Counted from the first letter of the stretch, positions 1,430 to 13,479 are shown. The stretch: 64,000 bases of DNA from an uncultured Ohtaekwangia sp. (GCA_964490505.1 CAZBCP010000016.1:36676-100675), one strand, 5' to 3'. The notes: generated by a model from the letters alone, not told the origin. Translations and numbers: made by a program.

Positions 1430-2224
1430 ATGAATCACACCCCACCAATACAACTTCCTTACGGCACTCATTCAGTAGCATATTACTGTAAGAAGGAACC
1501 TACCAGTGTTGTACTTTTTATTCACGGATTTCTCGGAAATGCTACCTCTACGTGGGATGAATTTCCAGCTCTAATTCGCGAGCGGCGGGATTTTGAAAAT
1601 TCAGACGTGATCTTTTATGGATACGACAGCGAAAAAGGACAAGCAAGTAACAATGCGCTCAAGTTTTATGAGTTTCTTAAAATTGCCCTAGTACAAACTC
1701 CAGGGACAATAAATTATCAACGCCGCGGGTTGCCTGAAAGCTTTCAATACTCAAAAATAATTTTCGTCGCACATTCACTGGGTTCAATTGTTCTACGGCG
1801 GGCGCTGTTAAACGCGAAAGCTGAAAAATGTAAGTGGCTCGAAAAAGAAAAAATGGTGCTCTTTGCACCAGCTCATCGCGGCGCGCGTGTTCAAAAATTA
1901 ATCTTTGATTCGCTCAATAGCTTTGGAAAAGTCATCGCTGGCCTTGGATTTTTTGGAATACCTGTACTAGATGACTTGCGACCTGAGTCGGTCACGATTA
2001 CAAGCTTAATCAAGGATACCGAAGCTTTACTTCAAAAAAATGAGGGAGAATTCACGAAGGCTCATACTGTAATCTGGGCCGGCAACGAGTACGTTGTCCA
2101 CAACGAGAGATTTTGCGAAGATCCAATTGCAAAGGTAATCGGTGACAAAACTCACAGTGAAGTTTGTAAGCCTATAGAAAAAAAATTTCTTGATCCAATC
2201 GAATTTGTTATCAAAGCATTATGA
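1430..2224 (+). CDS. Alpha/beta-hydrolase fold protein (lipase/esterase-like, PGAP1/DUF676-like)
   Basis: VVLFIHGFLGN (oxyanion region), nucleophile elbow FVAHSLGS (Ser116, codon 1775-1777), and a C-terminal DKTHSEVCKP His motif. The stop overlaps the next gene's start (ATGA at 2221-2224). Confidence 0.7.
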   Translation: MNHTPPIQLPYGTHSVAYYCKKEPTSVVLFIHGFLGNATSTWDEFPALIRERRDFENSDVIFYGYDSEKGQASNNALKFYEFLKIALVQTPGTINYQRRGLPESFQYSKIIFVAHSLGSIVLRRALLNAKAEKCKWLEKEKMVLFAPAHRGARVQKLIFDSLNSFGKVIAGLGFFGIPVLDDLRPESVTITSLIKDTEALLQKNEGEFTKAHTVIWAGNEYVVHNERFCEDPIAKVIGDKTHSEVCKPIEKKFLDPIEFVIKAL

Positions 2225-5200
2225 AAGATTTGGCACGAGAATTCAATTTTGACATCATCGTTGGGCAATACCGCTTGACGGGCCAAGCGGAGCAGGCACA
2301 CAAATTATTGAAGGTTTACTTAAGTGGCAGTGAGGGGAATTTGGCTGAGAAGCTTCGCGATCATAGAAGAAAATCTATTGGTGAGGATGAAACCCAATTT
2401 CGAGATGATGTTGATGTATTGCTTGACTTCTATTCAATCATTCAGGTAGGGCAAATAGCAAACTACTTCCCAGCGAATCTTCCTGACTGGTTTAAACAAG
2501 AAATTCTTGAAATTCTCGGTAACGCAGACGTTAGACGATACTACGAGGAATACTATCCCCTTTCGCTTCCCCAAGGATTGCTGCGTGTTGCCCAAGATGA
2601 TTTACATTTCAATGGGGTTGAGAGCGTCGAAGGAACAATACTATTTGAAAAATTTCTTTTGATCGTATCCGCAAACAAAGATGCAGACATAGAGTTGTTT
2701 CTTTGGCTCTTAGACAGCGGTTCGGTTGATGGTTACGTTTTAGATGACTTATGGCGAGTTTTTCAAAATCGAGAATTAATTGACCGTAAGTTGGCTAGCG
2801 ACACTAACCATCCATTAAATCGAGCGCTGTGGGGATTCATAAAGTATATTCAATTTCTTTCCGACTATAAAGCTCTACTGGTTCAGGCGCGACGATTTAC
2901 TTTGCTTCAATCGGCGCTTTGGCAATATCAAGCTTATTGGTTTTCGAAAATGAAAGATCGTCTCGGTGAAATCATTAGTGTCGCTATCGACAACATCATT
3001 CTCGCCGCCAACAACCTCGACCCCGGGGCTTTAATTGCAGGTGATTCCCTTATTTCTGACGAAAGCGACGTGCAAGTTTGGAAACATTCTGTTGAAAAAC
3101 TAAACCTTATCAAGCAGGACATAACGTTTCTTATGAATACGGAACTCGGCATGCCTTATAAGAAATTCATTTTGAGTGCGATCGAAACTAAACGACCAAT
3201 GAATCTTCTTGAAAAGCTTTTAAGGGAAAAAATCGAGAAAGGTGATGTCAAATTTGATATTTATGTTTTAAAGGGATTCGCAAATGATATACTGAGAAAT
3301 GTCTCCGATGTCATTGAGCCTGTCGCCATTCTCCCATTTGACGAAACATTGAAGCTTGACTTAGATAAAATAACAAATAGTTTCCTTGATCTAATCACTT
3401 CGATTAGACAAATACATTCGAATAAGCCGTTCTATATGTCCTTTGAATCGCTGCTATTCTTGTCGAGGGAGATGAATTTGGACCAGCTTAAGAAGCGTTT
3501 TTTAGTCATTGAAAACAATTTTTTCAACGAATATGTAAATCAAAGTAACTATGACGGTGTCGACTTCGAACATACACTTGATAGTGGAAAGGAAATCCCG
3601 GAATCTGGTTTGTTCTATTCATTTTATTCAAACGCTGCATGGAGAAATGGCGAGCTGTTGGTTCAATATATTGATGGCATTCCAGAAGAGTTTAGCAGTG
3701 TATCGAAGGCATATTTGATTGGTGACGGCCCTAAATCATTGAAACTAGAATCAACTTCCTCCAGCGCCTTACCGGAAAATACAACCTTACTTCAGCCATT
3801 TCAGATTCACTACGAAGAGTTGAAACGGAAGCTGACGGAATATGAACTTGCTAACCAAATTTTTGTAATTGATAAGCGAACCCAATTCCAAAGAGAGGCT
3901 AGCGCTGAATTGAACAAGTTCCTTAGCTTTATTGAACAAGCCGGGTTGAAGTGCAAAGTCTTGCAAGTAGACGACCGAATAGACACTACTTACAGACCAG
4001 AGCTGCGTCGACTCCTTAAAGATCATTGGAACAGTGAGGTCTTCAGAACCCTGAGGATTTACGAGGATCCAGATGTCGGTAACGAGCTCATTGATATAAA
4101 TCAAGGAGCTGTTGTGGAACAGATTGTTCAACAGTTTGAGGCTGCTCAAAAAGGTGAACCGGTCCGTGACGTTTTGTTGACTGCGCCAACTGGTTCAGGA
4201 AAGTCCTTGTTGTTCCAAATGCCCGCAATGTATTTAGCTGAGAGATACTCGGCGGTTACGATTGTCATCTCGCCCCTCATTGCACTGATGAAGGACCAGG
4301 TGCTCTCTCTACAGCGCGAGCGCGGGTATCAAGGTGTCGCATTCATGAATTCGGAACTTTCATTGTCCGATCGCGCCGAGGTTATCGATAAGATAAAGTT
4401 TGGTGACGTGTCAATTCTTTACATGTCTCCGGAACTTTTACTGTCATACGAACTATCGACCTTTATTGGTAACCGTACGCTTGGACTTTTTGTCATTGAT
4501 GAAGCACACTTAGTCACGACGTGGGGCCGGGATTTTAGAGTTGACTACTGGTATCTTGGAAATTTCATTCGAAGAATCAGAAAGTTTCACCAATTCAAAT
4601 TCCCCGTCATCGCTGTCACGGCGACGGCAGTCTACAATGGTCCAAATGATATGGTCTTCGAGACTTTAGATAGCCTATCACTTGAAAATTCAATAATGTA
4701 CATTGGCAAAGTAAAAAGAGAAGAGATACATTTTGAGATTTTTGCGGCTAAATTTGGCAGCTCTCATGAAAAAGAAAAGATTTCCCTTACTGCGAAGCGA
4801 GTAACGGAGTTACTCGACGCGGGTGAAAAGATAATAGTTTATTGCCCATGGAAGAGTCAATTAAAGGCAATAAGAGATAGTCTAAGTCCGAAGCATAAAG
4901 AATTAACTGGCGTTTACTTTAGTGATCTAGTTAAAGAAATTAAGAATGAAACGTACGAAGATTTCAAAAGTGGGCGACTACGGGCTATAGTTTCAACTAA
5001 GGCATTTGGAATGGGGGTTGATATTGATGACATAACGGTTGTATATCATCATGCGCCTTCTGGTCATTTGGCGGATTACGTACAAGAAATCGGTCGGCTT
5101 GCTCGCAAAACTAATATGGTCGGTAAGGCTATGACAAATTTCAATCCTAAAGACCTTAAGTTCACCAAAATATTATACGGCTTATCGTCGATAAAACAAT

Positions 5201-6408
5201 TTCAAGTTCGCTTGGTTCTGGAAAAAATTGTGAGGCTTCAGGCTTTGAAGCAACGACGTAATTTACTAATGTCTGTTGATGACTTTCAACATATATTTAA
5301 TTTCGAAGATGTCGACGTTGAACAAAAGGTAAAAAGCACGTTACTACTCCTTGAGAAGGATCTTCTCACCAAGTATAGATATAATGTGCTATTGGCGCGT
5401 CCTAAAAGTTTGTTTACGACAGTTTTCGTCCGTTTAAAGAACGGTGATCGGTCTTCGTTTTTGGCCAAGTACTCCGCCTTTTGCAAGGCAATCCCAAATG
5501 CAAAAATTGAAATGAAAGACTCTTCAGTGTATACAATTGAATTAGATAAAATTTGGGAGAAGTATCATTCAGATGTTAGTTTCCCAGCAATCAAAAAAGA
5601 GTATTTCGACAAGACGCTCTTCGCAAAAGATAATCTTGATATAAGTCCACAACTAAAATTCACCGTGTATTTAAATCAATCCAGCCAAGACTCATTTGTC
5701 GGCATGAACGCTATGTTTGAAAAGGTCGAATTTAGTTTAGCTAAATTCGGTGGAGGCTTTTTCAAGAAGCAAGATCTGGTGAAAAACCTCCACGATGTTC
5801 TAGCCGACAGGGTTCTAGCCAAACGTATTGCCGATCTAATTGTCTCAGTATATTCTAGTCCTGTTACGGGGATCGGTGCGAAACATTCTCAATTTGTAAA
5901 AACCGAGTGTTTTATACAGCAAAAACGTTCGGAGACGGATTATGACTATAGAGTAATTAGTCGGGCCTATCCTAAGGTGAGGTCCACAATCAAGAACAGA
6001 TTCGAGAGAATGTTTGGGAAGTTGAGTGATACGGAACGTGAGCAAGTCTTCTTCCTTCCTGCTGACTATGACAAAAATGTCGGGATGTTTAAGATGGCCT
6101 ATGTACTTGAGGCATTTGGTCTTGGGTCATATGAGGTCAACGGAGGCGAGAAACCTGGAGTCTTCGTTCGTATAAATGATCCCTCAAAGCTAAAACGACT
6201 AGTAAGGGGTGAATATTCAAATAATCTATTGCAAGAAATTGATCGCCAACAGAAAACGTCTGTCCAGATTATGGATTATTTCTTCACTCAACAAATGTCT
6301 GACGCTCGAAGGTGGTCATTTATTGAAGCATACTTTTTAGGAAAACCTACGGAAGAACTGATTGGTGAGAGTCTCTTGCTGGAAGGCGAGGAGGACGACG
6401 ACGCGTAA
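2221..6408 (+). CDS. Giant RecQ-like SF2 helicase (1395 aa) with uncharacterised N- and C-terminal regions
   Basis: Motif I LLTAPTGSGKS (K661). Motif II FVIDEAHLVTTWGRDFR, the RecQ-type DEAH..WG.DFR (D760-H763). Motif III AVTATA. Motif V/VI STKAFGMGVDIDD...YVQEIGRLAR. The helicase core spans ~aa 640-965. About 640 aa before it and ~430 aa after it (acidic tail EGEEDDDA) carry no motif I recognise. Confidence 0.85.
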   Translation: MKDLAREFNFDIIVGQYRLTGQAEQAHKLLKVYLSGSEGNLAEKLRDHRRKSIGEDETQFRDDVDVLLDFYSIIQVGQIANYFPANLPDWFKQEILEILGNADVRRYYEEYYPLSLPQGLLRVAQDDLHFNGVESVEGTILFEKFLLIVSANKDADIELFLWLLDSGSVDGYVLDDLWRVFQNRELIDRKLASDTNHPLNRALWGFIKYIQFLSDYKALLVQARRFTLLQSALWQYQAYWFSKMKDRLGEIISVAIDNIILAANNLDPGALIAGDSLISDESDVQVWKHSVEKLNLIKQDITFLMNTELGMPYKKFILSAIETKRPMNLLEKLLREKIEKGDVKFDIYVLKGFANDILRNVSDVIEPVAILPFDETLKLDLDKITNSFLDLITSIRQIHSNKPFYMSFESLLFLSREMNLDQLKKRFLVIENNFFNEYVNQSNYDGVDFEHTLDSGKEIPESGLFYSFYSNAAWRNGELLVQYIDGIPEEFSSVSKAYLIGDGPKSLKLESTSSSALPENTTLLQPFQIHYEELKRKLTEYELANQIFVIDKRTQFQREASAELNKFLSFIEQAGLKCKVLQVDDRIDTTYRPELRRLLKDHWNSEVFRTLRIYEDPDVGNELIDINQGAVVEQIVQQFEAAQKGEPVRDVLLTAPTGSGKSLLFQMPAMYLAERYSAVTIVISPLIALMKDQVLSLQRERGYQGVAFMNSELSLSDRAEVIDKIKFGDVSILYMSPELLLSYELSTFIGNRTLGLFVIDEAHLVTTWGRDFRVDYWYLGNFIRRIRKFHQFKFPVIAVTATAVYNGPNDMVFETLDSLSLENSIMYIGKVKREEIHFEIFAAKFGSSHEKEKISLTAKRVTELLDAGEKIIVYCPWKSQLKAIRDSLSPKHKELTGVYFSDLVKEIKNETYEDFKSGRLRAIVSTKAFGMGVDIDDITVVYHHAPSGHLADYVQEIGRLARKTNMVGKAMTNFNPKDLKFTKILYGLSSIKQFQVRLVLEKIVRLQALKQRRNLLMSVDDFQHIFNFEDVDVEQKVKSTLLLLEKDLLTKYRYNVLLARPKSLFTTVFVRLKNGDRSSFLAKYSAFCKAIPNAKIEMKDSSVYTIELDKIWEKYHSDVSFPAIKKEYFDKTLFAKDNLDISPQLKFTVYLNQSSQDSFVGMNAMFEKVEFSLAKFGGGFFKKQDLVKNLHDVLADRVLAKRIADLIVSVYSSPVTGIGAKHSQFVKTECFIQQKRSETDYDYRVISRAYPKVRSTIKNRFERMFGKLSDTEREQVFFLPADYDKNVGMFKMAYVLEAFGLGSYEVNGGEKPGVFVRINDPSKLKRLVRGEYSNNLLQEIDRQQKTSVQIMDYFFTQQMSDARRWSFIEAYFLGKPTEELIGESLLLEGEEDDDA

Positions 6409-6667
6409 GTAGAATGAATGATATCACCGCTGGGTCTTGATTCAATAAACAACCCGATTCGTCTGGATTTGTTGTTGTAGTTACTGATGTTGGAATGTGG
6501 GTAACTCAACGGAATGCCATTTGGCCGCACGATCTTTTACGAGTTATCCAGATTTCGACATCGGACCTGGCTCAACCTGACCTTAAAACGACCTCAAAAT
6601 CAACTTTTCAAGTATCAGAATGGCCGAGTTCCGAGGCCCATTCGCGATATGATCAACGTGTCTCTCG

Positions 6668-6757
6668 TACGAATGTGTATACATTCGTACATCTTGCCGA
6701 AACCACAAATCGGGTTTCTGTGTCCTACGAATGCGCCAGCATTCGTACATCTTGCCG
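6668..6757. repeat. Two copies of a 32-nt hairpin-containing direct repeat (TACGAATG-N6-CATTCGTACATCTTGCCG)
   Basis: Copy 1 at 6668-6699 (loop GTGTAT... tacgaatgTGTATAcattcgta) and copy 2 at 6726-6757 (tacgaatgCGCCAGcattcgta). Each has perfect 8-bp arms and the same 10-nt tail CATCTTGCCG. No U-run follows on either strand. Confidence 0.8.
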
Positions 6758-7694: not shown

Positions 7695-8302
7695 ATGATT
7701 GCTTCAAGGTATGGGCGTATTTGCTTTTCAACACGACAAATGCGGGCATACTTAAGAAGGCGTTCTGTATTAATTCGTTGGAGCGACCTATACTTTTTAA
7801 GAGCTTCAAGAAAAACATCCAGCCCAATCTTGTTCCTAAATTTGAAACAGTCAGCAAGGGTTTTTTCAGGATTGTATATTTTGACCATTACACCGTCAAC
7901 ATTATGTTTTTCTATTCCCTCCTCGTAAGCTTTTCCTCTAAATCTATATACCTTAATCGGGGGGTAACTCAGTCGAGGTGTGCGAGATTTTTCTGGAAGG
8001 GCAATTGATACCTCATGGGGAATCTGAGTTGTTAGTCGATGAAACGAAAGAGATGAAATAAGGCATATAACACCGCTACGGATTGAAAGCGCCGTTGTTA
8101 CCAGATCAGGATTTGACTGGGATTGCATCGATTTTAGTCTATAAACCCCCCTTGCCACAAGTTCCAGGCGTTTAGAACGGACGAGGTTGGTGAGAGTTCT
8201 CGCATAAATTCCTGAAGAAATTGCTTCCTTACTTCGAACAACACCACCTTTTTGTTTTATCCAATTCATTGCACGCTCAGAGGCTTTCTCAACGGTTCTC
8301 AT
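7691..8302 (-). CDS. abiEi: AbiEi-family antitoxin/transcriptional regulator (wHTH N-terminal domain)
   Basis: WIKQKGGVVRSKEAISSGIYARTLTNLVRSKRLELVARGVYRL is the typical AbiEi N-terminal wHTH. I place the start at Met18 of the track ORF (ATG 8300-8302), because the upstream 51 nt contain the promoter and operator. Confidence 0.8.
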   Translation of the reverse strand: MRTVEKASERAMNWIKQKGGVVRSKEAISSGIYARTLTNLVRSKRLELVARGVYRLKSMQSQSNPDLVTTALSIRSGVICLISSLSFHRLTTQIPHEVSIALPEKSRTPRLSYPPIKVYRFRGKAYEEGIEKHNVDGVMVKIYNPEKTLADCFKFRNKIGLDVFLEALKKYRSLQRINTERLLKYARICRVEKQIRPYLEAII

Positions 8303-8313
8303 AATGAATAGTA

Positions 8314-8338
8314 TTGTATATACTTGTATACAAATATA
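8314..8338 (-). promoter_or_regulatory. abiE promoter -7 box overlapping an inverted-repeat operator
   Basis: Inverted repeat TTGTATA-N6-TATACAA at 8314-8333. On the minus strand, TATATTTG (8331-8338) matches the Bacteroidota -7 consensus TAnnTTTG. Both lie 12-36 nt upstream of the abiEi ATG. Confidence 0.55.
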
Positions 8339-8450
8339 AGCGCATTTACGCATAATGGTGTGTGCCTTAGCTTTAAAAGCGTAGGCGTAAATGGGGAAAA
8401 CACTCCAATTTGAATTTTCACATATTTAACTTTTTCTTAATTTTAATTGA

Positions 8451-8495
8451 GCCCCTCTGAAATGCCGAAAGTTGCATTTCCGTGGGCTTTTTTTT
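8451..8495 (+). terminator. Intrinsic-terminator-like hairpin + T8 immediately upstream of the small-ORF array
   Basis: GCCC-CTCT-GAAATGC / loop CGAAAGTT / GCATTTC-CGT-GGGC followed by TTTTTTTT (8488-8495). It sits 22 nt before the ATG at 8518, and no plus-strand gene lies upstream of it. Confidence 0.5.
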
Positions 8496-8517
8496 GCTAA
8501 CCCTTAACGTCAAATTC

Positions 8518-8742
8518 ATGGATGAATCCCAAATAGTTGTAAGACTAGATGCAGTCATCAAACTCCTTGCAGTTGGGCTAATCAAAGGAAAGAGCAATGT
8601 CGAGGCAATCGAAATACTAGGGTCAACAGGACTCGATCGGAACACGATAGCTTCGATTATTGGAGTAGCACCAGCCCAAGTAAGAGCGAGGCTGTCAGAA
8701 TTAAAAAAGAGAAATAAGAAAAAGCATGACCGACAAAACTGA
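8518..8742 (+). CDS. Small HTH protein with Lys-rich C-terminal tail (paralog 1 of 6)
   Basis: MDESQIVVRLDAVIKLLAVGLIKGKSNVEAIEILGSTGLDRNTIASIIGVAPAQVRARLSELKKRNKKKHDRQN. It has a hydrophobic helix, a sigma70-region-4/LuxR-like HTH and a polyK tail. The track's GTG at 8482 lies inside the terminator hairpin, so I use the ATG at 8518. Confidence 0.6.
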   Translation: MDESQIVVRLDAVIKLLAVGLIKGKSNVEAIEILGSTGLDRNTIASIIGVAPAQVRARLSELKKRNKKKHDRQN

Positions 8743-8935
8743 ACAAATTTTCGTCAGGGACATTACTCTCATCAAGAATCTCTTGTCGCATATCCTTATT
8801 CAAGGCAAGCAACAAAATGAAGCCATTAAAGCCTTGAGCAATGCTGGCCTTGAGCCAAAAGAAATTGCCGACATACTTGGAACGTCATCTAATAATGTAA
8901 GCGTAGTACTTTATCAATCAAAAAAGAAAAAATGA
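8726..8935 (+). CDS. Small HTH protein with Lys-rich C-terminal tail (paralog 2 of 6)
   Basis: ...IKNLLSHILIQGKQQNEAIKALSNAGLEPKEIADILGTSSNNVSVVLYQSKKKK. Overlaps paralog 1 by 17 nt. Confidence 0.6.
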   Translation: MTDKTEQIFVRDITLIKNLLSHILIQGKQQNEAIKALSNAGLEPKEIADILGTSSNNVSVVLYQSKKKK

Positions 8936-9111
8936 ATTCATTCCAAAACGATACAGTCGCTCAAGACTTAAACGATATCAAAAAACTGCTAATTCTCCTT
9001 TTGCTTAAAAGGGAGGTCACGCAAATTGAAATTTCGAACGCCTTGGGTGTCGACAATAGCGTGATTAGTCGCATGATGTCCGCCAAGAAAAAGACCGGAA
9101 GAAAAAAGTAG
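8932..9111 (+). CDS. Small HTH protein with Lys-rich C-terminal tail (paralog 3 of 6; 59 aa, below the ORF-track cutoff)
   Basis: Hand-translated: MNSFQNDTVAQDLNDIKKLLILLLLKREVTQIEISNALGVDNSVISRMMSAKKKTGRKK*. The ATG overlaps the paralog 2 stop (ATGA at 8932-8935). Same helix/HTH/polyK layout but one helix shorter. Confidence 0.5.
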   Translation: MNSFQNDTVAQDLNDIKKLLILLLLKREVTQIEISNALGVDNSVISRMMSAKKKTGRKK

Positions 9112-9118
9112 ACGATAG

Positions 9119-10021
9119 ATGACGTCTAACGTTTCGGATCATCGATCGAATTCGCCAGAGCAAATTGAATTTGCTGTTAAGATAATTGGTAAATCAAAGC
9201 ATCGACGATTAGTCTTTGATGCCGTCTATTTTGGAAAGAAGGCCTTTAAGACAGTTAAAGAAATAAGCGCCAAAACAAAGTTATCGGAGAAACGAGTCTT
9301 AGAGGAAGGTAAGAAGCTTGCTGATAACGGGATCATAAAACAAGCAAAGAAAGACAAGTCGACGGCATATTCAAAAGATGCCTTTTACTCGGCCAACAAA
9401 AGTAAAATTCGGAGATTCTTAGATGATCCCAAGAAGTTAGGTGGATTTCCAACGAAACGAAATGTTAGTGTCAAAGTCAGCTTCGAGTCGATTCGAATTC
9501 CAACGAAGTCTTTCAAAATCAAAGCCATTACGATCGATGATATAGATTCATTTAGAAAAGTAAGGGGCCTTTATGAATCCACCTTCGATATTTCAGTGCT
9601 GTCCGAAACTCAATTTAAGAACGGAGTTCTCGGAATAATTGGAGAAAGAGGTGTGTTTAAAGATTGGGGAGGTGAGGTCAATGACTTATTAACAACAAGA
9701 GTTAAATACAAAGGCGCAAGAATATCGGCCGCTTTTGCATTTAAAGGTCCGGGAACAAAGGGTAAGCTTACCATAGCAAAGATGGGAAAAAACGGAGATC
9801 AAGTTTTGAGGCTATTCAAAAGTCCTGCTGACTTATTTATCCTGCAATACTGGTCCGAAATAGATCAGCGTGTGATTGAAGAGGTCGAATCGCACGCCAA
9901 AATTGCTTCATTATCGAATTTTGGGAAGGAAGTTCTCTATTGTGTAATCGATGGGCAAGATTCCGCTCGTATAGTTCAAGCTTATCGGGAGTTTTTCAAT
10001 TCAAGTAAAAAACGGAAGTAA
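9119..10021 (+). CDS. wHTH protein with an uncharacterised C-terminal domain (possible Mrr-like PD-(D/E)xK fold)
   Basis: The N-terminal ~90 aa look like a winged helix (VFDAVYFGKKAFKTVKEISAKTKLSEKRVLEEGKKLADNGIIKQ). The C-terminal FKDWGGEVNDLL...AAFAFKGPG...ADLFILQYWSEID has the spacing of an Mrr-type D...(D/E)xK core. The fold assignment is inference only. Confidence 0.5.
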   Translation: MTSNVSDHRSNSPEQIEFAVKIIGKSKHRRLVFDAVYFGKKAFKTVKEISAKTKLSEKRVLEEGKKLADNGIIKQAKKDKSTAYSKDAFYSANKSKIRRFLDDPKKLGGFPTKRNVSVKVSFESIRIPTKSFKIKAITIDDIDSFRKVRGLYESTFDISVLSETQFKNGVLGIIGERGVFKDWGGEVNDLLTTRVKYKGARISAAFAFKGPGTKGKLTIAKMGKNGDQVLRLFKSPADLFILQYWSEIDQRVIEEVESHAKIASLSNFGKEVLYCVIDGQDSARIVQAYREFFNSSKKRK

Positions 10022-10043
10022 CAACGAATTAATTTCAAGGTGA

Positions 10044-10250
10044 ATGAAAAAGGACCCCAGTGAGAAAGAACTTCTTTTTGAGATAAATGAAAATCTCAAG
10101 AGGCTGATCGCAGTTGTCTCAACACAAGGACTAGACGATGAAACTAAGATCAAAATGTTAACTTCAATGAAGTACAGTTCTTATGATATCTCTGAAATGA
10201 CCGGAATCCCTGCACGAAGTATCAGGCGTAAAACCAGTAAACAAAAATAA
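10044..10250 (+). CDS. Small HTH protein with basic C-terminal tail (paralog 4 of 6)
   Basis: ...LKRLIAVVSTQGLDDETKIKMLTSMKYSSYDISEMTGIPARSIRRKTSKQK. Confidence 0.55.
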   Translation: MKKDPSEKELLFEINENLKRLIAVVSTQGLDDETKIKMLTSMKYSSYDISEMTGIPARSIRRKTSKQK

Positions 10251-10253
10251 CGG

Positions 10254-10475
10254 ATGAAAAAGGAACAAGAATCCGAGCCACGACTACCAAGTTTAGCGTT
10301 GGTTTTCGGTTACATTGCTGTCAAAGATTTTCAACGAATCGACGATCGAATAGAGGTCCTTTCAAGACTCGGCTACGGAAATAATGAAATTGCGCTGATC
10401 TGCGGTTCAACAGCCGGGAGGGTGGCAGTATCAAAGAGTATCCTCAAGAAGAAAACAAAAAAGGCCAAAAAATGA
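10254..10475 (+). CDS. Small HTH protein with Lys-rich C-terminal tail (paralog 5 of 6)
   Basis: ...LALVFGYIAVKDFQRIDDRIEVLSRLGYGNNEIALICGSTAGRVAVSKSILKKKTKKAKK. Starts 3 nt after the paralog 4 stop. Confidence 0.6.
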   Translation: MKKEQESEPRLPSLALVFGYIAVKDFQRIDDRIEVLSRLGYGNNEIALICGSTAGRVAVSKSILKKKTKKAKK

Positions 10476-10678
10476 AGTCTCGAGAGATCACGGACGAAAA
10501 AAGACAAACCCTTATGTTGGGTTATCTCTGTGTGGCTACTGAAATCGGATCAAGCATTGAACGAAAGGTACAAATCCTAGATCGGTTCGCGTTAAAGGAT
10601 GCAGAAATTGCGATCATTTGTAATTGCGCCCCACAGTCAGTTTTGAATGCCCGTCAAAAGAATAAAAAGAAGAAGTGA
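10472..10678 (+). CDS. Small HTH protein with Lys-rich C-terminal tail (paralog 6 of 6)
   Basis: ...LMLGYLCVATEIGSSIERKVQILDRFALKDAEIAIICNCAPQSVLNARQKNKKKK. ATGA overlap with paralog 5. Confidence 0.6.
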   Translation: MKSREITDEKRQTLMLGYLCVATEIGSSIERKVQILDRFALKDAEIAIICNCAPQSVLNARQKNKKKK

Positions 10679-10679
10679 T

Positions 10680-11201
10680 ATGGCGAGAACTCCAGCCATA
10701 ATAAAGCTGCCGGATGAATATGCTAATGCATTAAAGTTGGGGCCACCAACTTTCAGTACTATTTTCCAATTCGAGAACGGTCTTCGTATTCTGGTGAACA
10801 ATTATCTGGTAACGCTCTATGGTCAAGACTGGTGGGAGCAGTCGTTAAAAATTAGGATGCGTCCAATATACGACTATGTAGAAGATCAGAAAAACAAACG
10901 AAGTTTTATGCCTTGGATTGGTGACTCACCATCCGTCCAGTTGCTTCCCTTGCATTCGATTACCTTAGGGCACCTTGAGCAAATCGTCATCCATTATCGG
11001 TCCGACTGTGTTCCCGAGTTATTTCCAACATTGGACTTTTTTACCGGGCATCTTTTGGTCATTAAGAAGGTTAGAAATCTTTTTGCACACATGTATCCTT
11101 GTGTAGATAAGCAAGATCTTCAAACGTTAAAGCGAGAAGTTAAGACTCTTACAGAGCACATCGAGGTTAAGATCCGTCAGTATCCATCAATTATCCCATG
11201 A
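10680..11201 (+). CDS. HEPN-domain protein (Swt1-like HEPN, predicted RNase)
   Basis: Rx4H motif R-N-L-F-A-H (nt 11073-11090, KKVRNLFAHMYP). The N-terminal FENGLRILVNNYLVTLYGQDWWE is typical of Swt1-like HEPN proteins. I use the ATG at 10680 (MARTPAI), 1 nt after the paralog 6 stop; the track start at 10647 would overlap paralog 6. Confidence 0.65.
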   Translation: MARTPAIIKLPDEYANALKLGPPTFSTIFQFENGLRILVNNYLVTLYGQDWWEQSLKIRMRPIYDYVEDQKNKRSFMPWIGDSPSVQLLPLHSITLGHLEQIVIHYRSDCVPELFPTLDFFTGHLLVIKKVRNLFAHMYPCVDKQDLQTLKREVKTLTEHIEVKIRQYPSIIP

Positions 11202-12398
11202 GTTTTTTCTTCAACACCCTCATATCCTCACTCACCTTCCTCTCCACGACCTTCGCATAAATCTGCGTTGTCCTAATCGAAGTATGCCCCAACATCTTCG
11301 ATACCGTCTCTATCGGAACACCATTCGTTAAAGTTACGGTCGTAGCAAACGTATGCCTCGCCAAATGAAACGTCATGTGTTTCAAACACCACACACATCC
11401 GCGATCTCTTTCAAGTACGCATCCAACTTCTGATTCGACATCTGCGGAAACAACCGATCAAATCCATACCTTCTATATTTCTCGATCAAAACCAACGCCT
11501 TTGGTAGCAAAGGCACACGGACAGGCAGGTTAGTCTTTTTTCTCGTCATCATTATCCACCAATCTCCATCAATTCCCTTACAAATGTTTTCCGGTTTCAG
11601 TATCATCACCTCGTTATACGCTAAACCAGTATAGCAACTGAACACGAATAAATCCCTCACATAACCCAACCTTTCTACAGCGAATTCCTTTGCTTCTATT
11701 GCCTTCAAATCTTCCAGTGAAAGGAAATGCCTCTCCTTCTTAATAAACCTCGCCTGGAACTTTATAAACGGGTCCTTGTCGATCCATTCATTGCGCAAGG
11801 CAACGCCGATCATCTTGCGAAGTCTCTCAATGTGTTTGAGGATTGTGTTATGTCCACAAGGCCTATCATCATTCGGCTTCTTTAAATTCTTCAAGAACAG
11901 TTCAAAGTCAATCAAAAACCTATAATTCAAATGGCTCAACGGCAAGTCCTGCACTCGAATGACTTCATTTAAGAACCTTTGAATGTATTTCTGGGTGGTC
12001 TCGTAATTCTTCATCGTTCCCCACTCCAGCTTTGACTTCAAATGATTGTTGTGGTAATCTATTAGACCGAGCAAAGTGTGTTCGGTCGGGGCAATACCGC
12101 AGTATAGATTCTTGATCGCTTCGACGGTCACAGGTTGGCGTTGCATCCGAAGCTCCGTGCAAATGTTGGTAAGGTCGGTTCTAATCCGATCAAGATAAGC
12201 ATTGAACTGCCTCACCTCGGGTCGAGTACCGGAAAGACATCCCCTCGACATATCCCAGGAACTCACGTCGACTCTTCTTTTCACCGACACATCTACCGTT
12301 CGTCCGTCTACGCCAATCCTCACGTACACCGGCGTCATTCCATTCGATTCCTTATCACGCTTCACAAAGAATCTAACCGCCAATACATTCGTCATCAT
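11191..12398 (-). pseudogene. Bacteroidota-type tyrosine recombinase/integrase, split by a single frameshift
   Basis: ORF 11382-12398 carries the arm-binding N-terminus plus the core-binding domain and ends ...LKEIADVCGV*. ORF 11191-11394, in another frame, continues LKHMTFHLARHTFAT...LGHTSIRTTQIYAKV, which holds the catalytic R, H-x-x-R and Y. The junction is at the run GGTGTTTGAAAC (minus strand, ~11382-11394). One extra T would restore CGV-LKHMTFHLARH. Confidence 0.75.
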
Positions 12399-12539
12399 AC
12401 TTCACAAGTTTTTAAGTGTCGCACTCTCAAACCATCCAACCCCTCCATTCCCTATCTAACGTAAACCCTCCAAGGGCACGAATAGGGCACAAACTCCTTG
12501 TTACTCTTTGATTCGCTTTGACTTATTAGAAATAAAAAA

Positions 12540-12564
12540 GCCTGCCTACCGGCAGGCAGGTCTC
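12540..12564 (-). terminator. Palindromic element copy 1 (GCCTGCC-TACC-GGCAGGC), acting as a terminator-like hairpin on the minus strand
   Basis: On the minus strand the hairpin is followed by TTTTTTATTT (plus-strand A-run 12534-12539). It lies ~200 nt downstream of tRNA-Pro and upstream of the integrase. It contains the 12-mer CCGGCAGGCAGG (12549-12560). Confidence 0.55.
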
Positions 12565-12757
12565 TAAATCCATAAGATTTAAAAGCTTGCCCCGCCGGAT
12601 GGCGGGGGCCGTTGGTTCTGTTTGAAAAACCTGCGTGTTTGTTTGAAAAACGAAGTCGGGCATCGCCCGACGGAGTCCGCATAACGAGTTTTTGAATCAA
12701 ACTTTGCCTTGCGAACGAAGTCCGCCGTCGCTCGCTGTTCGCGAGCTATGGCGGACG

Positions 12758-12775
12758 AAGTCGGGGTGAGAGGAT
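12758..12775. repeat. tRNA-proximal att-like direct repeat
   Basis: AAGTCGGGGTGAGAGGAT, identical to 1107-1124. It covers tRNA-Pro positions ~59-73 plus 3 nt downstream. Confidence 0.8.
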
Positions 12776-12835
12776 TCGAACCTCCGACCTCTACGTCCCG
12801 AACGTAGCGCACTAGCCGGGCTGTGCTACACCCCG
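12761..12835 (-). tRNA. tRNA-Pro: tRNA-Pro (anticodon CGG)
   Basis: Hand-folded 75-nt cloverleaf: CGGGGTG TA GCAC AGCCCGGCTA GTGC G CTACG TTCGGGA CGTAG AGGTC GGAGG TTCGAAT CCTCT CACCCCG A. The acceptor stem is fully paired, the T-loop is TTCGAAT, and the anticodon loop TT-CGG-GA gives the anticodon. No CCA is encoded. Confidence 0.9.
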
Positions 12836-12870
12836 ATAACTTACATCTACATGCCGATGTTCGTCAGCAT

Positions 12871-12924
12871 GCCGGGCTGCCGCGTCTGCCGAAACTTTAG
12901 TAAAGGCAGGTGCTACACCCCGAT
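12871..12924 (-). other. Partial duplicate of the tRNA-Pro 5' arm, interrupted by a 30-nt hairpin
   Basis: GCCGGGCTG (12871-12879) and GTGCTACACCCCGAT (12910-12924) reproduce the contiguous 12815-12837 of the tRNA gene. Here they are separated by CCGCGTCTGCCGAAACTTTAGTAAAGGCAG (stem CTGCC/GGCAG). Confidence 0.6.
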
Positions 12925-12993
12925 TCCCTCGAAGGGACCCAAAAGTAAGAATTCCCCCGAAAAACTGCACCGTACTTCACGTATCTTACCGTA

Positions 12994-13479
12994 ATGGACC
13001 ACACCTTCTACCTCATTTACTACGTCGCCTGCAGCATCCTCGGCATCATCACCTTCAAAGGCATCCACTCCCCTATTCTCAAATGGATCACCGTCGCTCT
13101 AACATTCCTCTTCGCCCTCAACGTCATCGACCTCATCCTCCAGCTACACCTCGGATTCATCGCCGTCATCTGCTTTGTCCTCGCCTCCATCTTCTTCGTG
13201 CGAGCCATCGCCAAACACGCTTTCCTCAGCCGCGGCGAAAAAACCCTCTTCATCATCTATACCATCATGCTCATATTTAAATTCATATTCGCTGTCCTCC
13301 ACCTCAACGGCGCCGACGAAATGAGCGTGATCTGCTTCGTAATACTCCTTATCACCATCGGACGCTTACTATATTCAAAACTCAAAAAGAAATCCCTCAA
13401 AGGAAAAACCGACATAATCGAAGTCGGCGGCCTCCTCACCTGCTTCTGGCTCCCTACATTTGTCCGTATCTTCATTTAG
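12994..13479 (+). CDS. Integral membrane protein, function unknown
   Basis: 161 aa, with several hydrophobic segments (ILGIITF..., ITVALTFLFALNVIDLILQL..., IAVICFVLASIFFV...). No recognisable motif. Confidence 0.5.
   Translation: MDHTFYLIYYVACSILGIITFKGIHSPILKWITVALTFLFALNVIDLILQLHLGFIAVICFVLASIFFVRAIAKHAFLSRGEKTLFIIYTIMLIFKFIFAVLHLNGADEMSVICFVILLITIGRLLYSKLKKKSLKGKTDIIEVGGLLTCFWLPTFVRIFI

Follow-up and report, generated by a model that had tools for sequence, protein, structure and literature searches.

Paired mini-helix-turn-helix genes and two effector candidates in an eight-gene array of an uncultured Ohtaekwangia sp.: a possible member of a widespread, unnamed class of conflict modules

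What kind of genetic system is encoded when six very small helix-turn-helix (HTH) genes stand in two groups, each in front of a larger gene for a presumed effector? The question is raised by positions 8518-11201 of a 64,000-nt stretch of DNA from an uncultured Ohtaekwangia sp. (GCA_964490505.1, CAZBCP010000016.1:36676-100675), the whole of which is referred to here as the window. All eight open reading frames (ORFs) that the initial annotation of the window had placed there are present, head to tail on the plus strand, and are designated as follows.

s1, 8518-8742, plus strand: 74 amino acids (aa), mini-HTH protein with a basic tail (KKRNKKKHDRQN)
s2, 8726-8935, plus strand: 69 aa, mini-HTH protein, tail SKKKK
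s3, 8932-9111, plus strand: 59 aa, short mini-HTH protein, tail KKKTGRKK
L4, 9119-10021, plus strand: 300 aa, winged helix and conserved C-terminal alpha/beta domain, presumed effector
s5, 10044-10250, plus strand: 68 aa, mini-HTH protein, tail RRKTSKQK
s6, 10254-10475, plus strand: 73 aa, mini-HTH protein, tail KKKTKKAKK
s7, 10472-10678, plus strand: 68 aa, mini-HTH protein, tail KNKKKK
H8, 10680-11201 (or from 10647), plus strand: 173 aa (or 184 aa), HEPN protein of the Abi2/Swt1 clade, presumed RNase effector

The junctions of -17, -4, +7, +22, +3, -4 and +1 nt between successive genes are reproduced exactly and support the proposed tight operon of small genes with two effector-like proteins. 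Public gene calls contain seven of the eight ORFs with identical boundaries, all without a name; s3, which had fallen below the ORF cut-off in the initial annotation, is nevertheless called publicly, and the ORF missed by the public calls is s1. The description of the six small ORFs (59-74 aa) as paralogous HTH proteins with lysine-rich tails is borne out by the tails of the wider family and by BLASTP within the window (s1-s2, 3e-9 with 42% identity; s6-s7, 3e-6; s2-s6, 6e-4; s5-s6, 2e-3). The similarity of s3 is weak within the window, and clear s3 orthologues are found elsewhere. Matches of the window small proteins extend across phyla with E-values down to 2e-23. In related loci, which are denoted by L and three digits, s1 is 48% identical to the product of L003 6241-6459 (E 2e-16), s5 is 49% identical to that of L001 3586-3786 (E 8e-18), and orthologues of s2 with 46-51% identity lie beside L4 homologues in L001 and L003. 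Orthologues of s6 occupy the same position in L002, L007, L010, L033, and L069 (55-64% identity), and those of s7 lie directly before H8 homologues (53-69% identity); in L002, the two genes directly before the H8 homologue are 60% identical to s6 and 55% identical to s7. In pairs of related loci, the ratio of nonsynonymous to synonymous substitution rates (dN/dS) of the small ORFs is 0.055-0.29, compared with 0.078 for L4 in the same pair, and Shine-Dalgarno motifs precede homologues of the small ORFs in other phyla. A lack of conservation and of purifying selection had been named in the initial annotation as evidence that would count against the array; what is found is cross-phylum conservation and a low dN/dS, which therefore speaks against an absence of purifying selection. 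The small ORFs are genuine genes under purifying selection. Tight packing is likewise general, since among 162 pairs of adjacent family genes in related loci the median spacing is 1 nt, 43% of the pairs overlap, and -4 is the commonest junction.

The nature of the small proteins is best seen at the level of the family. When 116 members were scanned singly against Pfam, Sigma70_r4_2 was matched by 35 (best 1.9e-8), HTH_23 by 35, HTH_3 by 13, and GerE by 11, and no dedicated Pfam family for such proteins was found among these scans. A profile of the family matched the C-terminal domain of NarL, RhlR, region 4 of SigR, MepR, and others in the PDB with E-values of 1e-5 to 1e-3. The Pfam and PDB matches thus indicate that the small proteins are stand-alone HTH domains, and the sigma-70 region 4/LuxR-like HTH that had been proposed for them holds at family level through the Sigma70_r4_2, HTH_23, and GerE matches. 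Taken singly, the window proteins remain under the Pfam cut-offs: s2 matches Sigma70_r4_2 at 3e-4 with 20.8 bits against a cut-off of 25.7, and GerE at 0.039, and the HTH matches of s3 are weak. When the eight proteins were compared directly with Pfam, NCBIfam, PADLOC, and PHROGs, only weak HTH matches and, for H8, the PADLOC model PDC-M34B were returned. The s2-type proteins are apparently four-helical and the s3-type proteins three-helical when the sequences are read by eye, with no tool. The core of the small proteins is acidic to neutral (isoelectric point 4.9-7.9) and the last dozen residues are strongly basic; at least five lysine or arginine (K/R) residues are found in the last 12 positions of 53% of 223 family members versus 4% of control ORFs. 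The tails are equally basic where no gene comes after, and for that reason the basic tail is regarded as a family trait. On the same ground, an origin of the lysine tails as a by-product of the initiation region of the next gene was rejected.

Whether this arrangement recurs was followed from the two large genes. A homologue search with s2 alone returned s2 and one fragment only, the word index being too coarse for 69 aa. For L4, one genome per species was surveyed, giving 127 relatives, of which 80 loci were kept from approximately 20 phyla, including Nitrososphaerota, Bathyarchaeia, Halobacteria, Woesearchaeota, candidate phyla radiation (CPR) bacteria, and Planctomycetota, as well as Nitrospirota, Acidobacteriota, Chloroflexota, Proteobacteria, Leptospira, and Bacteroidota. 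For H8, 80 metagenome loci were collected; 65 of these had enough sequence, and 44 non-identical loci were used for counts of contiguous genes. Small-family members were detected by a hidden Markov model built from the six window proteins and iterated over all ORFs of at least 40 aa in the fetched loci. The tandem small HTH ORFs for which a neighbourhood search had been proposed were indeed found next to L4 and H8 homologues. A small-HTH ORF lies within 1.5 kb of L4 in 73 of 80 loci, and the density of such ORFs is 0.87/kb within 1.5 kb of L4 or H8 versus 0.021/kb farther away, a 41-fold enrichment. Counted directly upstream of L4, the contiguous small genes number 0 in 22 loci, 1 in 18, 2 in 21, 3 in 11, 4 in 6, and 5 in 2, and up to six stand in a row in L080. 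The commonest assignable order is s2-type, then s3-type, then L4; at position -1, the class most often assigned to a window paralogue is the s3-type (24 loci), and the s2-type, to which 64 of the 136 family members assignable to such a paralogue are best matched, is the commonest small subfamily upstream of L4 homologues. Directly upstream of H8, the pair s6-type, s7-type is present in 46 of 65 metagenome loci and in five of six other genome or long-contig loci. Among the 44 non-identical H8 loci, exactly two contiguous small genes are found in 24 and three in 8, and s5 stands in the window as such an accessory third gene before the s6-s7-H8 unit.

The conserved unit is consequently n+1, most often 2+1, with 0-6 small genes overall, and it is effector-specific: each effector retains its own cognate small-gene pair across phyla. 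The duplicated "3+1" unit of the initial annotation has to be revised in this respect, given that the two triplets of the window are drawn from different effector-specific subfamilies and are not copies of each other. The conserved pairs before L4 and H8 therefore identify s1 as an extra s2-like copy and s5 as an extra accessory gene. Composite arrays joining an L4 unit with an H8 unit are found elsewhere as well (L010, L012, L033, L069, L095, L096, and L142). L010 has the order s s s L4 s6 s7 H8 on a 3.7-kb contig binned as Thaumarchaeota, a taxon that is uncertain; the array in L012 belongs to Nitrospirota and that in L033 to Bacteriovoracaceae, the latter with the H8 unit first. In L112 and L167, a second unit ending in a HEPN protein of 255-268 aa comes after an H8 unit.

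Several variants of the layout were observed in addition. In one Nitrospirota metagenome-assembled genome, an array s s L4 s s H8 stands at the ends of two contigs (L012 and L013), and its L4 is split into ORFs of 242 aa and 59 aa; either an assembly-breaking repeated element or a degraded copy may be present there. In L029, L052, and L084, the small-HTH array is on the opposite strand and divergent from L4, and co-transcription with L4 is therefore not obligatory. A further family of MarR-like winged-helix proteins of approximately 95-170 aa, with 16 members, is encoded upstream of L4 homologues; in some loci, members of approximately 100-140 aa replace the mini-HTH genes, and in others the family accompanies them. 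Its members are located as follows.

L003, 4687-4998: MarR-like winged-helix gene upstream of an L4 homologue
L007, 3319-3750: MarR-like winged-helix gene upstream of an L4 homologue
L024, 4727-5448: MarR-like winged-helix gene upstream of an L4 homologue
13 other loci: MarR-like winged-helix genes upstream of L4 homologues

The large position of related arrays is not restricted to L4 and H8. A 266-aa protein in which a DUF2240-like N-terminal region is fused to HEPN_Swt1 (PDC-M34B, 2e-35) is found inside or beside related arrays; the same N-terminal region is also fused there to Hypoth_Ymh, a HEPN family in the 2013 HEPN survey (PMC3710099). Proteins with NOV_C, NucS_C, Mrr, and TIR_2 domains likewise occur inside or directly beside related arrays. 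Different nuclease-type effectors fill the large slot in related arrays. No regularity is seen among the outer neighbours: the 132 flanking proteins closest to the arrays represent 121 Pfam families, with many housekeeping genes (LepA, EF-G, LytB, PheT, SucC, LigA) and a minority of genes for methylases, recombinases, PIN, GIY-YIG, or PADLOC-matching proteins. The module thus behaves in the manner of toxin-antitoxin (TA) modules, as a cassette that is self-contained and horizontally mobile.

The Swt1-like HEPN assignment of H8, with an intact Rx4H motif, is confirmed. The motif is RNLFAH (RNxxxH), and across 20 diverse homologues there is no variation at R132, N133, and H137, nor at E32, N33, and R36 of a second motif, FENGLR. 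H8 matches PADLOC PDC-M34B at 1.9e-11 and the 266-aa product of L002 3762-4562 by BLASTP at 2e-6; the L002 protein passes the Pfam HEPN_Swt1 threshold (34.6 versus 27.5 bits). H8 itself lies under the Pfam gathering cut-offs, with 13.0 versus 27.5 bits for HEPN_Swt1 and 14.6 versus 25.6 bits for Abi_2, and among the 20 homologues sub-threshold matches to Abi_2 are found in 14 and to HEPN_Swt1 in 6. From its similarity to PDC-M34B, HEPN_Swt1, and Abi_2, H8 is placed by sequence in the Abi2/Swt1 clade as a putative sister family distinct from those described. The family comprises at least 112 clusters, all unnamed or "hypothetical." A K/R-rich N-terminus is found in 79% of H8 homologues, and the start of H8 may be the ATG at 10647 instead of 10680, which would give a protein of 184 aa with a basic N-terminus (MPVKRIKRRSD) and a junction of -32 nt with s7. 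With that start, one A/G-rich stretch would code for basic residues in two frames at once.

L4 consists of an ArsR/MarR-like winged helix at residues ~7-110 and a very highly conserved alpha/beta domain at residues ~130-290. The AlphaFold2 model has a predicted local distance difference test (pLDDT) score of 87 for the whole protein, and the C-terminal domain modelled alone has a pLDDT of 89 and a predicted template modelling (pTM) score of 0.86. The winged helix of the initial annotation is confirmed by Foldseek, which relates the N-terminus with a probability of 1.00 to HlyU, TubR, SrnR, NolR, CzrA, and MarR proteins (target-normalised TM-score 0.6-0.7); weak ArsR and CasR/Csa3 HTH matches are also seen in sequence. 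The family is large, with more than 1279 clusters at 90% identity, all unnamed or "hypothetical," and identity between bacteria and archaea amounts to 40-59%; a basic C-terminus is found in 45% of homologues. The C-terminal domain, which forms 1083 clusters at 50% identity and is always C-terminal, carries the motifs FxDWGGExxD, AFAFKG, GKNGDQIQRLF, QYW, and IDGxD. Its invariant residues are E163, D182, W183, G184, G185, E186, D189, R201, K209, G210, D227, Q228, R231, Q243, D278, and D281, and E163, D182, E186, D189, K209, Q228, and R231 form an enzyme-like subset of these. The domain behaves as a mobile domain. On IMG/VR contigs, it lacks the winged helix and follows unrelated N-terminal regions of 50-300 aa, at the following positions.

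L089, 5848-6531: L4 C-terminal domain, shortly downstream of an integrase and a pair of paralogous genes of ~220 aa
L090, 5428-6486: L4 C-terminal domain
L091, 5434-6504: L4 C-terminal domain
L092, 5023-6336: L4 C-terminal domain

Less can be maintained of the Mrr-like PD-(D/E)xK nuclease domain that had been suggested for the C-terminal half of L4. The C-terminal domain was modelled alone, as Foldseek with whole L4 was flooded by winged-helix matches, and the best matches are weak: E 9e-3 and TM 0.35 in the PDB (N-domains of Rpb5, Cap4), E 8e-3 in BFVD, and TM at most 0.38. The BFVD matches include phage proteins labelled restriction endonuclease with probabilities of 0.98 and 0.80 and weak E-values. 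The order of helix, three strands, helix, and strand fits a restriction-endonuclease core, in the expected elements of which E163, D189, and K209 are located in the predicted model, all structural matches being weak. By hhalign, the domain aligns with Mrr (0.6%), NucS_C, and NOV_C proteins at probabilities below 1%, each target being a single sequence. PDB sequence-profile searches with L4 and H8 gave nothing meaningful, with matches to dynein light chain and uS8 at chance level. The domain lacks both a Pfam model and a significant structural neighbour, which leaves the Mrr-like label for L4 unproven, a reasonable lead and not a result.

How, then, might the array function? The favoured answer, for which the evidence is judged to be about evenly balanced, is that it represents two concatenated TA or abortive-infection-like modules of one widespread, unnamed class. 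Unit 1 would consist of s2-type, s3-type, and L4, with s1 as an additional s2-like copy, and unit 2 of s6, s7, and H8, with s5 as the additional copy. Each module would comprise a pair of paralogous mini-HTH proteins translationally coupled to a nuclease-type effector downstream. By analogy with type II and tripartite TA and with abortive-infection systems, the two small proteins of a unit would act together, probably as a heterodimer, binding DNA and repressing the operon and/or keeping the effector inactive in the manner of type II antitoxins. Should infection or another stress halt synthesis of the small proteins, or displace them, the effectors would be freed, whereupon H8 would cut RNA and L4 probably DNA, leading to arrest of the cell or the invader. 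The architecture agrees with that of type II TA: a small gene for a DNA-binding protein lies upstream of, and is coupled to, a gene with an enzyme-like product, and the cassette that they form is mobile and self-contained. On a broader scale, and with confidence somewhat short of even, the arrays are tentatively regarded as pan-prokaryotic, previously unrecognised modular conflict systems, in which mini-HTH pairs or short arrays are constant, nuclease-type effectors are interchangeable, and units can be chained. The effectors would then include a new and very highly conserved enzymatic domain with the motifs FxDWGGExxD ... AFAFKG ... GKNGDQIQRLF, for which there is neither a Pfam model nor a structural neighbour that has been solved.

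Several observations speak against the TA-like interpretation. Basic tails are odd on proteins that are to block a nucleic-acid-binding cleft, and since they are found on L4 and H8 too, co-binding of nucleic acid would account for them better than simple inhibition. A search for proteins in which a small HTH is fused to an effector, as a Rosetta-stone link, found none. No conserved operator or palindrome was recognised by eye across 62 regions upstream of arrays, and recognisable defence genes are only a minority of the nearest neighbours. As regards catalysis by L4, its C-terminal half has no Pfam, NCBIfam, or PADLOC match and no significant Foldseek neighbour in the PDB or BFVD. The D...(D/E)xK triad is also incomplete: D189 and K209 are invariant, but the motif reads AFK, with alanine two positions before K209; the acid might be supplied from another position, by E163 or E186.

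A different account, rated as unlikely although it is the main rival, is that the small proteins are targeting or sensor subunits that assemble with L4 and H8 on nucleic acid through the basic tails; foreign DNA or RNA would be marked or recognised by them, and the nuclease recruited or activated there, in a nucleoprotein surveillance complex. K/R-rich termini on all three kinds of protein (C-terminal in the small proteins and L4, N-terminal in H8) are in its favour, as is the predicted DNA-binding winged helix of L4 itself, and a structural role is suggested by the fact that each effector has two different small subfamilies in fixed positions. A precedent is offered by type IX retrons, which are reported to combine a reverse transcriptase (RT) and a noncoding RNA (ncRNA) with a HEPN nuclease plus a winged-helix protein, the latter two serving as dual effectors. 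A variation from 0 to 6 small genes would, however, be unusual for a machine of fixed stoichiometry, and the lack of small HTH-effector fusions tells against this account as well. Alternatively, L4 could be a modification-dependent (type IV-like) restriction enzyme of Mrr architecture, with the small HTH proteins as C-protein-like controllers and H8 as an attached abortive-infection RNase. L4 has the length of Mrr and the same layout of N-terminal winged helix and C-terminal alpha/beta domain, its secondary-structure order and the placement of E163, D189, and K209 would suit a restriction-endonuclease core, the weak Foldseek matches include the restriction endonuclease entries, Rpb5 N-domains, and Cap4, and a Mrr gene lies beside the L4 homologue in L005. 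Against these stand the absence of any Foldseek match with E below 0.008 or TM above 0.38, of a Pfam Mrr_cat match, and of an hhalign probability reaching 1% for Mrr, NucS_C, or NOV_C, together with the alanine in place of the acidic residue of (D/E)xK; moreover, C-proteins are single Xre-type genes and not pairs of sigma-70 region 4-like paralogues. This alternative accordingly has a low probability.

Two further explanations would remove the array from conflict biology altogether. The array might encode transcription factors or nucleoid-associated proteins for genes of the island or the host, with L4 as a ligand-binding regulator; every protein but H8 has an HTH, many cassettes lie among housekeeping genes, and the catalytic role of the L4 C-terminus rests on prediction. 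Such a regulatory role is nonetheless improbable in view of the intact and invariant HEPN catalytic motif of H8, the HEPN, TIR, Mrr, NucS, and NOV_C proteins in or beside related arrays, and the patchy spread across domains with high identity and no fixed neighbours that is typical of selfish or defence modules. The small ORFs might, finally, be chance or mis-called ORFs in A-rich spacer DNA, a notion to which their short length of 59-74 aa and the absence of s1 from public gene calls lend some colour. Conservation with E-values to 2e-23, the dN/dS of 0.055-0.29, the 41-fold enrichment near effectors, and the Shine-Dalgarno motifs leave it practically no probability, and it is regarded as excluded by the conservation data.

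The TA-like interpretation may also be considered beside the systems that the array resembles. Type II and tripartite TA systems (PaaR2-PaaA2-ParE2, omega-epsilon-zeta) share with it a compact mobile operon in which small DNA-binding genes overlap a downstream toxin-like gene, and a scattering among unrelated neighbours; in the tripartite cases, two small genes accompany one toxin. By contrast, the small proteins of the array are paralogues of one sigma-70 region 4/LuxR-like family with basic tails, their gene number varies from 0 to 6, and the units are chained in tandem. Among the HEPN proteins of the Abi2/Swt1 group (AbiD/AbiF; Abi_2, HEPN_Swt1), the RNxxxH motif and a detectable sequence similarity are shared with H8, but AbiD and AbiF function as lone genes, while an s6/s7 pair nearly always stands in front of H8. 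H8 corresponds to component B of the PADLOC candidate PDC-M34, itself uncharacterised; neither the eight window proteins nor the related small and large proteins that were scanned gave a match to PDC-M34A. Mrr-type (type IV) restriction endonucleases resemble L4 in length (~300 aa), in the combination of a winged helix with an alpha/beta domain, and in conserved acidic and lysine residues; L4 differs from them in having no sequence match or significant structural match to Mrr_cat and in its obligate small HTH partners. GerE, a 74-aa dimeric regulator, and other stand-alone LuxR or sigma-70 region 4 proteins likewise have approximately 70 aa and an HTH domain only, and what sets the small proteins of the array apart from them is the K/R tail, the tandem paralogues, and the linkage to effectors. 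Type IX retrons, lastly, share a HEPN nuclease with an HTH-type DNA-binding partner, the partners in the array being mini-HTH pairs; no RT or msr/msd-type ncRNA was seen in the island that carries the array, where the Rfam scan covered 8000-13000 and found only a tRNA.

The impression that no system with such arrays had been described is upheld by these comparisons, since the libraries gave no named match and no description was found in the literature. Neither L4 nor any of the six window small proteins has an above-threshold match in Pfam, NCBIfam, or PADLOC. Tandem mini-HTH genes with Swt1/Abi2 HEPN proteins were not found in the 2013 HEPN survey (PMC3710099) or in a 2013 review of defence systems. 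The literature search mostly did not reach subscription papers, so that an earlier description is possible. Compared with a TA or abortive-infection module with a HEPN toxin, the array is new in having mini-HTH partners in pairs, units joined in a chain, and an effector domain that is uncharacterised.

Information on the mobility of the array is provided by its surroundings in the window, in which a type IX secretion system (T9SS) sorting domain and a SusC/SusD pair mark the host as Bacteroidota. The location had been described as a tRNA island, which is not correct: only one tRNA is present in the window, a tRNA-Pro(cgg) at 12760-12835 on the minus strand, which serves as an integration site. 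Two perfect copies of an 18-nt direct repeat, AAGTCGGGGTGAGAGGAT, are present, one at 1107-1124 and the other at 12758-12775, where it forms the 3' end of the tRNA-Pro, and the GC content is ~40% inside and ~48% outside. The repeat and the drop in GC content therefore delimit an integrated island of 11.65 kb with the array as cargo, and the two repeat copies are the attachment (att) sites of the element. The order in the island is a DUF676-like gene, a helicase gene, AbiEii, AbiEi, the eight-gene array, and a split tyrosine integrase, so that the array adjoins AbiEi/AbiEii within the island, as had been reported. The integrase (11191-12398, minus strand) consists of a 338-aa ORF with Arm-DNA-bind_5 and a SAM-like domain, followed in another frame by a 67-aa ORF corresponding to the C-terminal part of the catalytic domain. 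It is probably a frameshifted pseudogene, and the island may thus be immobilised. The DUF676 (serine-esterase-like) gene at 1430-2224 (plus strand) overlaps by 4 nt the helicase gene at 2221-6408 (plus strand); the 1395-aa DEAD/DEAH helicase matches the PADLOC model C3a193, "possible alternative Cas3," at 5e-185, and also DpdF and PsyrT models. These two genes likely form a defence system of their own within the island. Two imperfect 35-nt direct repeats, each with a palindrome, TACGAATG...CATTCGTA, lie at 6665-6699 and 6723-6757, in the gap where the helicase and abiEii genes converge, and may be bidirectional terminators or a binding site. The region directly upstream of the array is as follows.

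abiEi-s1 intergenic region, 8354-8517, no strand assigned: presumed promoter/operator, with abiEi divergent from s1; holds a hairpin

The hairpin (8453-8486) has 13-nt arms with 85% complementarity and is followed by a T8 run to 8497 on the plus strand, ~20 nt 5' of s1. The element at 8453-8497 is terminator-like, but no plus-strand gene precedes it, and an insulator, attenuator, or operator is possible. A promoter scan of the region at 8354-8517 gave nothing above shuffle expectation, in a scan that does not cover Bacteroidota promoters.

If the proposed interpretation is true, the arrays would constitute a widespread immune or addiction module that has been overlooked by current annotation. 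They would add a new effector domain, represented by more than 1,000 clusters at 50% identity and, as L4, by members in approximately 20 bacterial and archaeal phyla. The use of two paralogous mini-HTH proteins per effector instead of a single antitoxin would be an unusual neutralising or regulatory principle, and chained units such as that of Ohtaekwangia would co-express DNA-directed and RNA-directed effectors. Furthermore, tandem genes of fewer than 100 aa encoding HTH proteins with basic tails would provide a genomic signature by which further effectors may be recognised.

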